10,514 bases of DNA from a virus (lineage: Duplodnaviria; Heunggongvirae; Uroviricota; Caudoviricetes), in IMG/VR virus record IMGVR_UViG_2698536533_000007. One strand, 5' to 3'. The stretch's first letter is position 1; every line of letters begins with the position of its first letter. Made by a program: the position numbers. Below, piece after piece: positions 9,001 to 10,514 of the stretch.

Positions 9001-10514
9001 NNNNNNNNNNNNNNNNNNNNNNNNNNNNNNNNNNNNNNNNNNNNNNNNNNNNNNNNNNNNNNNNNNNNNNNNNNNNNNNNNNNNNNCAGTATGCGGAGCT
9101 GCTGAGTGAATATAAACATCTGCGGCGGTATTTTGGCGTGACGGTGCAGGTGCCGTATACCGATGTGTGGACGCATAAACCGGTGCAGTTCTATCCCGGG
9201 AAACATCCGTGCGAAAAACCGGCAGAAATGCTGCAGCAGATAATCAGCGCTAGCAGTCGTCCGGGTGACCTGATTGCAGATTTTTTCATGGGGTTGGGTT
9301 CGACAGTGAAAGCGGCACTGGCGCTCGGGCGTCGTGCAATTGGCGTTGANNNNNNNNNNNNNNNNNNNNNNNNNNNNNNNNNNNNNNNNNNNNNNNNNNN
9401 NNNNNNNNNNNNNNNNNNNNNNNNNNNNNNNNNNNNNNNNNNNNNNNNNNNNNNNNNNNNNNNNNNNNNNNNNNNNNNNNNNNNNNNNNNNNNNNNNNNN
9501 NNNNNNNNNNNNNNNNNNNNNNNNNNNNNNNNNNNNNNNNNNNNNNNNNNNNNNNNNNNNNNNNNNNNNNNNNNNNNNNNNNNNNNNNNNNNNNNNNNNN
9601 NNNNNNNNNNNNNNNNNNNNNNNNNNNNNNNNGGTCACTGGTTCGAATCCAGTACAACGCGCCACACTTATTTTCCCTGGCTCGCTTTTGCGGGCCTTTT
9701 TTTTAAATGTCTCACAATTCAGACGGTTGACAGTTGTCTGTTTTGCGGGGAGTTTGTTAAAAGAAACTGGCATGGTGAATCCCCCTGTGCGGAGGGGCAA
9801 TCAGCGAGTAGGTATATGGGATAATCGCGGATTCAGGTGCTGGTACTGAATTCACCGGGAGGCACCCGGCATCATGCAATGGCACATAGCGCCACTCTCC
9901 AGCCCTCTCCGGAGGGGCTTTTCTGTGCCGGATACATCACAGTTTCTGGAACCTTAGGTACTACAGTATCAGTCAGGGTGCTATATTTTCAGATGTGATG
10001 AAAGCCTGTCAGCAGGCAGGGCGTATCGGAAATGACCCAGTAGAGAAAACNNNNNNNNNNNNNNNNNNNNNNNNNNNNNNNNNNNNNNNNNNNNNNNNNN
10101 NNNNNNNNNNNNNNNNNNNNNNNNNNNNNNNNNNNNNNNNNNNNNNNNNNNNNNNNNNNNNNNNNNNNNNNNNNNNNNNNNNNNNNNNNNNNNNNNNNNN
10201 NNNNNNNNNNNNNNNNNNNNNNNNNNNNNNNNNNNNNNNNNNNNNNNNNNNNNNNNNNNNNNNNNNNNNNNNNNNNNNNNNNNNNNNNNNNNNNNNNNNN
10301 TTGCAGAGTGCAACGGTTATTAAAGCATTCATTCAATACGTTATCTGTATTTGTAGGGCATTCCTGGCTATTTTTGATTGAATTCCAGAATGTTTTATTG
10401 AATGGTACTACGTTGTAAATGGTTACAGGTAGCACTTTGTTATTGAGCATGATGCCTGTGTGAGTCAGTGTAAATATACTTTCAGGAGGTAAGAAAGCAT
10501 CCGATTGATACCAG

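Follow-up and report, generated by a model that had tools for sequence, protein, structure and literature searches.

The right-hand end of the window (the whole stretch of 10,514 nt analysed here, IMG/VR record IMGVR_UViG_2698536533_000007, Caudoviricetes) carries on its plus strand the end of a tRNA cluster with its terminator, a small RNA of the STnc100 family with a putative promoter of its own, and the beginning of a second STnc100-like unit, followed on the minus strand by a truncated iraL gene (Table 1).

Table 1. Features of the right-hand end of the window, in window coordinates
Feature	Position	Strand	Basis or remark
tRNA-Arg, last 32 nt	9633..9664	+	window 9633-10050 aligns to L002 10719-11136
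Remainder of Ile/Arg/Arg tRNA cluster			masked
Intrinsic terminator ending the tRNA cluster	9679..9704	+	GGCTCGC-TTTT-GCGGGCC then T8; 7 pairs, 6 of them G-C
Sigma-70 promoter of the sRNA (putative)	9734..9762	+	TTGTCT (9734-9739), 17-nt spacer, TTAAAA (9757-9762)
STnc100-family sRNA, copy 1	9770..9923	+	Rfam match, covariation (99 copies), qPCR primer matches
Copy 1, P1	9771-9777 with 9870-9876	+	
Copy 1, P2	9781-9796	+	
Copy 1, pseudoknot	9801-9805 with 9839-9843	+	UCAGC with P3 loop GCUGG
Copy 1, P3	9829-9835 with 9847-9853	+	
Copy 1, P4	9855-9869	+	
Copy 1, single-stranded linker	9877-9900	+	putative seed
Copy 1, terminator	9901-9919 plus U tract	+	
Copy 2, 5' part of degenerate STnc100-like unit	9979..10050	+	runs into the mask
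Copy 2, extended -10 TGCTATATT	9979-9987	+	motif position
Copy 2, P1 5' strand TGTGATG	9994-10000	+	motif position
Masked stretch	10051..10300	.	true length and content hidden
iraL, codons 30-100 (annotated 'anti-adapter protein IraM')	10301..10514	-	translation, exact allele, profile matches

The window is interrupted by eight runs of N (2464-2741, 3786-4065, 4237-4511, 4737-5012, 6501-6750, 8821-9086, 9350-9632 and 10051-10300), the last two of which border and break up the region considered here. The lengths of these runs are not real: in collinear relatives matching the window at 100% on either side of a run, 280, 283, 275 and 250 Ns stand in place of 100, 325, 298 and 263 bases, respectively, so that an ORF or a spacing spanning a mask is unreliable and means nothing. 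A composition profile counting Ns as non-GC was likewise left aside, and G+C content was recomputed without Ns, giving 36.9% in 10301-10514 against 49.7% in the whole window; the much lower GC that an earlier note, made from the sequence alone, had seen on the right is thus real. Terminator-like sites are enriched in 9633-10514 (four observed versus 0.4 expected in the terminator scan). The tRNA-Arg remnant corresponds to a gene annotated at 10674-10750 in the matching sequence of the uropathogenic strain (UPEC) NU14 (L002), and no tRNA was called by ARAGORN in the window since the gene body consists of Ns. Under the mask at 10051-10300, the rest of copy 2 is predicted on the left side, and the last 11 iraL codons with their stop on the right.

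The structured stretch upstream of this mask is, judged by its covariance-model match, a member of the STnc100 family. RF02076 (STnc100) is its sole Rfam match (9741-9930, plus strand; 123.6 bits for a gathering score of 47, E 3e-28) and spans the entire model (positions 1-206 of 206), with P1, P2, P3, P4 and the 3' terminator hairpin all found in the window's copy, and the published STnc_100 qPCR primers have exact matches at 9771-9790 and 9844-9863. The 'sRNA or regulatory RNA' that the earlier note had proposed for 9705-9980 can therefore be placed in a curated family; no frame is open there for more than 59 codons, in agreement with the claim that this interval lacks a credible ORF, and the three hairpins that had been listed, present at 9782-9797, 9855-9869 and 9903-9917, correspond to STnc100 P2, P4 and terminator.

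The single-sequence folding energy of the stretch is unremarkable (z = -0.54; 53 of 200 shuffles fold as well), and as it was not significant, the structure was tested by covariation instead: the evidence for an RNA is the covariance-model match together with covariation, not folding energy. The comparison included 96 distinct copies from 97 loci of species-representative genomes (Salmonella, Klebsiella, Kosakonia, Enterobacter, Citrobacter, Pantoea, Erwinia, Rahnella and other genera), the window copy and two Shigella copies, that is 99 copies, across which standard pairs occupy 94.5% of cells, a share that falls to 35-46% once the 3' partners are shifted by 1-3 columns. The covariation score (0.370, versus 0.163 in shuffles) and the number of doubly changed cells (393, versus 119.5) were not reached in any of 500 shuffles. 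P1 and P3 covary, and compensatory changes affect all five pseudoknot pairs and six of the seven P3 pairs, while P2 and P4 are uninformative in this respect because they are invariant, being fixed by the search pattern. The 5-bp pseudoknot, in which the P3 loop pairs with the segment that follows P2, is absent from the consensus-structure line printed by cmscan. In many genomes, RefSeq places an antisense 'incomplete hypothetical protein' pseudogene over the STnc100 RNA (for example L001 6127-6252, L002 10845-10970 and L329 8269-8394, equivalent to window ~9760-9885, minus strand); the call is in all probability spurious, the gene there being that of a non-coding RNA, and automated pipelines thereby mis-annotate the sRNA as an antisense pseudogene fragment.

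The copy 1 transcript would start near G9770, by analogy with PasD2 of EPEC E2348/69, whose promoter aligns to the window copy as TTGACT-17-TTAAAA, and whose 5' end is the G two bases ahead of CATGGTG, the P1 5' strand (RNA-seq-estimated 5' end NC_011601.1 741157; PMC8550237, table S6). The TTGTCT motif is preferred as the putative -35 box given its 17-nt spacing and the PasD2 analogy, while TTGACA at 9727-9732 was rejected in this role, being 24 nt away from TTAAAA; the TTGTCT-17-TTAAAA promoter was not scored in a consensus promoter scan. An AT-rich -10-like box lies approximately 7-12 nt ahead of P1 in most of the 99 copies. On the opposite strand, the promoter-like site running from 10012 to 9985 is no evidence of a promoter, as one such site was found for 1.1 expected.

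With PasD2 itself, the STnc100 model gives 41.4 bits, and PasD and STnc100 are independently described as structural homologues in a 2026 preprint. PasD has been confirmed by Northern blot, depends on Hfq for its stability, has many RIL-seq partners, and carries its seed in the single-stranded linker just 5' of the terminator (PMC8550237). Another relative is the STnc100 copy located 75 nt downstream of stx2B, which overlaps the Hfq-bound EcOnc27/sRNA103; EcOnc27 has been shown by Hfq-CRAC and Northern blot, and STnc_100 by RT-qPCR, and Tree et al. described eight Sakai prophages with convergent Hfq-bound sRNAs in this same slot, which follows PR' (PMC4104026). On the basis of PasD, EcOnc27/sRNA103, the primer match and the Sakai slot, copy 1 is read as an Hfq-type trans-acting sRNA. 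The expected RNA of ~150 nt would comprise a pseudoknotted core of ~106 nt closed by P1, a linker of ~24 nt, and the terminator with its U tail. By homology with PasD1/2 and EcOnc27/sRNA103, it would bind Hfq through the terminator and U tail, and its linker, where the seed is presumed to lie, would base-pair with host and island mRNAs. The terminators of the tRNA cluster, copy 1 and copy 2 would stop read-through into the esterase and lysis genes, except by Q-modified RNA polymerase. When the arrangement is compared with a lambda-type PR'-tR' leader, the sRNA and Q (end at 7781) are ~2 kb apart, separated by a methylase gene and the tRNAs, while in seven other species a PF03589 Q gene is found ~305 nt upstream of the STnc100 core, with holin genes after it.

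After copy 1, the window holds what sequence comparison identifies as the start of a decayed second STnc100 copy. The complement of its P1 strand, CATCACA, is found in relatives within the part that is masked here, and the window-identical sequence of L007 (8048-8221, ~174 nt at 100%) can be aligned to the STnc100 model from one end to the other, scoring 30.1 bits (E 4.6e-5), which is below the gathering score of 47. Of 5,426 complete E. coli genomes, 669 contain window 9915-10050. Copy 2 as found in NU14 and S. sonnei 53G keeps P1 (UGUGAUG with CAUCACA), P3, a shortened P4 and the terminator, and is followed by a third copy (161 bits), then by a SASA/NanS-type esterase gene and a holin gene. 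Three tandem STnc100-type units are thus present in S. sonnei 53G (L007 7800-8510) and NU14 (L002 10826-11503), with scores of 136, 30 and 161 bits in NU14 and a terminator for every unit, and the tandem lies directly upstream of a SASA esterase gene or of its DUF1737-domain remnant; L309 and a Pantoea plasmid (L245) hold tandem arrays as well. Copy 2 is interrupted in many S. sonnei genomes by an IS3-family element, which enters 59 nt into the part that is masked in the window (L003 8189 onward; window ~10110); the junction is seen in 5 of 79 viral contigs.

The gene on the minus strand is, from its translation and allele match, iraL of the CFT073 type. In relatives, iraL has 111 codons and is annotated as 'anti-adapter protein IraM'; the 71 residues visible in the window are residues 30-100 of P0015, an exact full-length allele recorded as Shigella IraM on about a thousand contigs, so that the first 29 codons lie past the right window edge, with the true start ~86 nt beyond 10514. 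P0015 is identical to the CFT073 protein of the potB prophage at 110 of 111 positions, and to K-12 IraM at 65 of 107 (61%), which places it on the IraL side of the separation used (at least 95% identity to CFT073 iraL and ~59% to K-12 IraM). The PDB entry 8TWD (IraM) is matched at E 6e-31. Against NCBIfam NF007393, the fragment scores 91.1 bits over profile positions 32-102 of 114, below the cutoff of 121 because the gene is truncated by the window, and the full-length IraL relative reaches 158.4 bits; a local Pfam scan of IraL returned no family, while precomputed tables list PF11183. IraL was defined in the potB prophage locus of UPEC CFT073 by Hryckowian et al. 2014, who reported 58.9% identity to K-12 IraM, an enrichment in Shigella, binding to RssB and stabilisation of sigma-S in CFT073 and S. 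sonnei, the latter with an iraL deletion mutant, and different conditions for the response of K-12 iraM (PMC4045071). By extension from this published activity, IraL would be made in the lysogen from its own promoter and would bind the N-terminal domain of the adaptor RssB, keeping ClpXP off sigma-S in exponential growth.

How far does this identification agree with a rival gene model for the right-hand end, built on the minus-strand gene of the earlier note, namely a novel minus-strand cargo protein of at least 153 aa at 9989-10450, followed by a new plus-strand gene after a strong AGGAGG? An ORF listing does return 9989..10450 on the minus strand (153 aa), and the region is AT-rich, but the frame is read through a run of 250 Ns whose length is unreal. 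Read in frame in L007 and L002, the left flank meets a stop at window ~10103, 38 codons upstream of the terminal stop, and stops within the masked part, which had been named as refuting the ORF, occur in every relative examined. All 78 viral contigs carrying the left anchor continue identically for at least 59 nt past it, as non-coding copy 2, while in all 120 contigs carrying the right anchor, iraL terminates inside the masked part, 36 nt left of the anchor, and a convergent STnc100 copy ends ~37 nt beyond the iraL stop. A minus-strand gene therefore exists, as had been claimed, but 9989-10050 belongs to the non-coding STnc100-like copy, and the ATG at 10450 taken as a start is internal Met51 of IraL. 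The supposed ribosome-binding site lies at 10484-10489, one base away from the position first given, and is the antisense of CCT CCT, the codons of Pro38-Pro39; when the window is extended with 100%-identical Shigella sequence, each of the three plus-strand frames that follow it is closed by a stop a few codons on, which leaves no plus-strand gene at the edge. This model is therefore very improbable. The observation behind it is nevertheless partly confirmed, and its interpretation partly supported: the coding strand is indeed the minus strand, against Q, the methylase and the tRNA genes, and 'AT-rich, oppositely oriented moron' was right in kind for iraL, which is a host-physiology gene acquired by horizontal transfer and located in the cargo region between Q and lysis.

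The same flanks raise another possibility, that copies 1 and 2 beside iraL do not represent a natural locus but a recombinant, or an assembly chimera, of two S. sonnei prophages sharing STnc100 repeats. Window 5013-10050 is 99.9-100% identical to one prophage ('A', L003-L012; 100% over 9087-10050), and window 10301-10514 is 100% identical to another ('B', L021-L030) present in the same genomes, so that either a rearrangement or an artefact of assembly may have produced the junction. The two flanks are joined in none of 5,426 complete E. coli genomes, as searched with 9634-10514 and with the whole window. When all viral contigs carrying either anchor were checked for the other, only L035 had both, separated by 2,049 nt that include an IS element, and L100/L158 is a scaffold with an N gap between the flanks. 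Exact-flank patterns gave no match with a gap of 240-260 in the viral, genome and metagenome collections, nor with a gap of 163-193 in metagenomes; no sequence in any collection searched had both flanks within ~1 kb, and contigs reached via the Q, QueH and IraL proteins showed either the 'A' or the 'B' arrangement, never both. The S. sonnei IS insertions 59 nt into the masked part point in the same direction. On the other hand, lambdoid prophages are naturally mosaic, as is the remainder of the window, and Shigella chromosomes were sampled only indirectly, so that a real strain with such an arrangement may exist. We regard a non-natural junction as unlikely, albeit the most serious of these alternatives, and it would leave the identity of the parts unchanged. 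Elsewhere in the window, 255-2463 is 100% identical to a Rac-like prophage segment of a draft assembly (L020), while for 2742-3785 and from 5013 on the match is to a different prophage, of S. sonnei, and a Rem-gene segment of 127-171 nt at 4066-4236 recurs in diverged form in 5013-5267 (~94-96% to shared relatives). The prophage early region encodes a QueH-family protein of 228 aa (PF02677, epoxyqueuosine reductase; 1755-2441, plus strand), the exact sequence of which is present in several Shigella chromosomes. In the IMG/VR contig L055 (11,186 nt), the module order is reversed relative to the window (Q of the B type, STnc100, iraL, then the A-type methylase, tRNAs, copy 1 and copy 2), and these modules have evidently been shuffled among Shigella prophages or assemblies. 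A last alternative concerns the function rather than the identity of the RNA, with an STnc100 unit acting mainly in cis. Its core and terminator would then control transcription into the esterase and lysis genes as a leader or attenuator, perhaps with a ligand or protein bound to it, and any trans role would be secondary. The core is strongly conserved and pseudoknotted; in ~20 other species it lies 86-208 nt upstream of a KdgM porin gene, on the same strand and with no strict terminator in between, and in Klebsiella a pectate lyase gene comes next after the porin gene. Prophage STnc100 units always share the strand of the late genes and precede SASA/NanS or holin genes, and they often form tandems with one terminator per unit. 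The transcript of copy 1 would however start exactly at P1 from its own promoter, prophage copies end in strong terminators, and the PasD relatives build up as separate RNAs that depend on Hfq and have many partners in RIL-seq; moreover, no alternative antiterminator pairing was found and no ligand is known. A mainly cis-acting unit is thus improbable, and slightly more doubtful still is its general form, in which the pseudoknotted core would be a riboswitch- or attenuator-like sensory or protein-binding domain, serving both as the leader of chromosomal kdgM porin/pectate lyase operons and upstream of prophage NanS-type esterase and lysis genes; if true, the STnc100 unit(s) of the window would gate read-through into the late genes on a signal. 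The KdgM-linked cores (L234, L255, L289, L290 and ~16 other loci, in Kosakonia, Klebsiella, Raoultella, Enterobacter and Citrobacter) look, by their position, like 5' leaders. In Klebsiella michiganensis, for example, the core is followed by a KdgM porin gene and then by a periplasmic pectate lyase gene, with a LuxR-type regulator divergent upstream (L255 1849-2763). In other species again, the core has a PF03589 Q gene on one side and holin or lysozyme genes on the other.

Taken together, the region is in all likelihood a cargo ('moron') zone of a lambdoid prophage, extending from the Q antiterminator to the esterase and lysis genes, and containing tRNAs with their terminator, an STnc100 sRNA, a decayed second copy and a reverse iraL. 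This reading builds on the family membership, RNA structure, gene identity and gene limits in relatives established here, and borrows from published work the Hfq dependence of the relatives and the activity of IraL; the promoter and start, the location of the seed and the insulation by terminators are its conjectural parts. The earlier note had compared this place with the position of toxin or virulence cargo in Stx-type phages. In Stx2 phages, the toxin operon lies upstream of the STnc100-type sRNA and probably downstream of tRNA-Arg; in the window, this slot measures ~105 nt and holds only the terminator and the putative sRNA promoter, with no ORF and no toxin operon between tRNA-Arg and the sRNA, and the order in an stx-less relative is tRNAs, sRNA region, NanS and holin. 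The cargo is iraL, which is neither a toxin nor novel, and it sits on the far side of the sRNA(s), where EHEC phages carry AsxR/AgvB-type convergent sRNAs. The prophage would thus carry two lysogen-expressed modulators of host regulation, an Hfq-type sRNA (by analogy) and a sigma-S stabiliser, in the slot that Stx phages use for toxin genes. Neither element is new, one being known as the Rfam family STnc100 and the other as the characterised gene iraL, and the result is useful as annotation but matters little for discovery, the elements being catalogued and their relatives studied experimentally. Two side observations would matter if taken further, namely the covariation support for the pseudoknot and the occurrence of the same fold as a putative kdgM leader in other genera.

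Several known systems share parts of this arrangement. The AsxR/AgvB anti-sRNAs, partners of EcOnc27/EcOnc06, occupy the same slot, directly downstream of and convergent with an STnc100-type sRNA, but the convergent element in the window is a protein gene; RF02702 and RF02703 (AsxR/AgvB) have no match on either strand of the window nor in relatives covering the mask (L002, L024, L035), and at E up to 10 none in 9880-10050 or L007 7990-8260. With the STnc100 members that include EcOnc27/sRNA103 of Stx2 phages, copy 1 shares the helices, the terminator, the late-transcription strand and the location between the late promoter or tRNAs and a NanS-type esterase or holin gene. It differs from STnc100 in one G-U wobble in P1 (CATCATG instead of CACCATG), and the locus differs from that of EcOnc27/sRNA103 in having no stx operon upstream of the sRNA and a degenerate second copy next to it rather than an AsxR-type convergent sRNA. 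PasD1/PasD2 (EcOnc13 in EHEC) have in common with copy 1 the promoter, the P1-closed core, the seed linker, the terminator and the position upstream of an esterase or holin gene, but the window sequence has diverged, with a different P2, P4 and linker/seed, so that the PasD targets are not transferable. K-12 iraM, unlike the iraL of the window, has no STnc100 neighbour; none was found either at the IpeX/nmpC locus of DLP12, and a link to IpeX or nmpC was rejected on this ground. The iraL of CFT073 belongs to the same module (tRNAs, STnc100, iraL in reverse, then an esterase remnant and holin); the Shigella allele differs from it by one substitution, Leu74 to Ser, and the window differs by a second STnc100-like unit between copy 1 and iraL.
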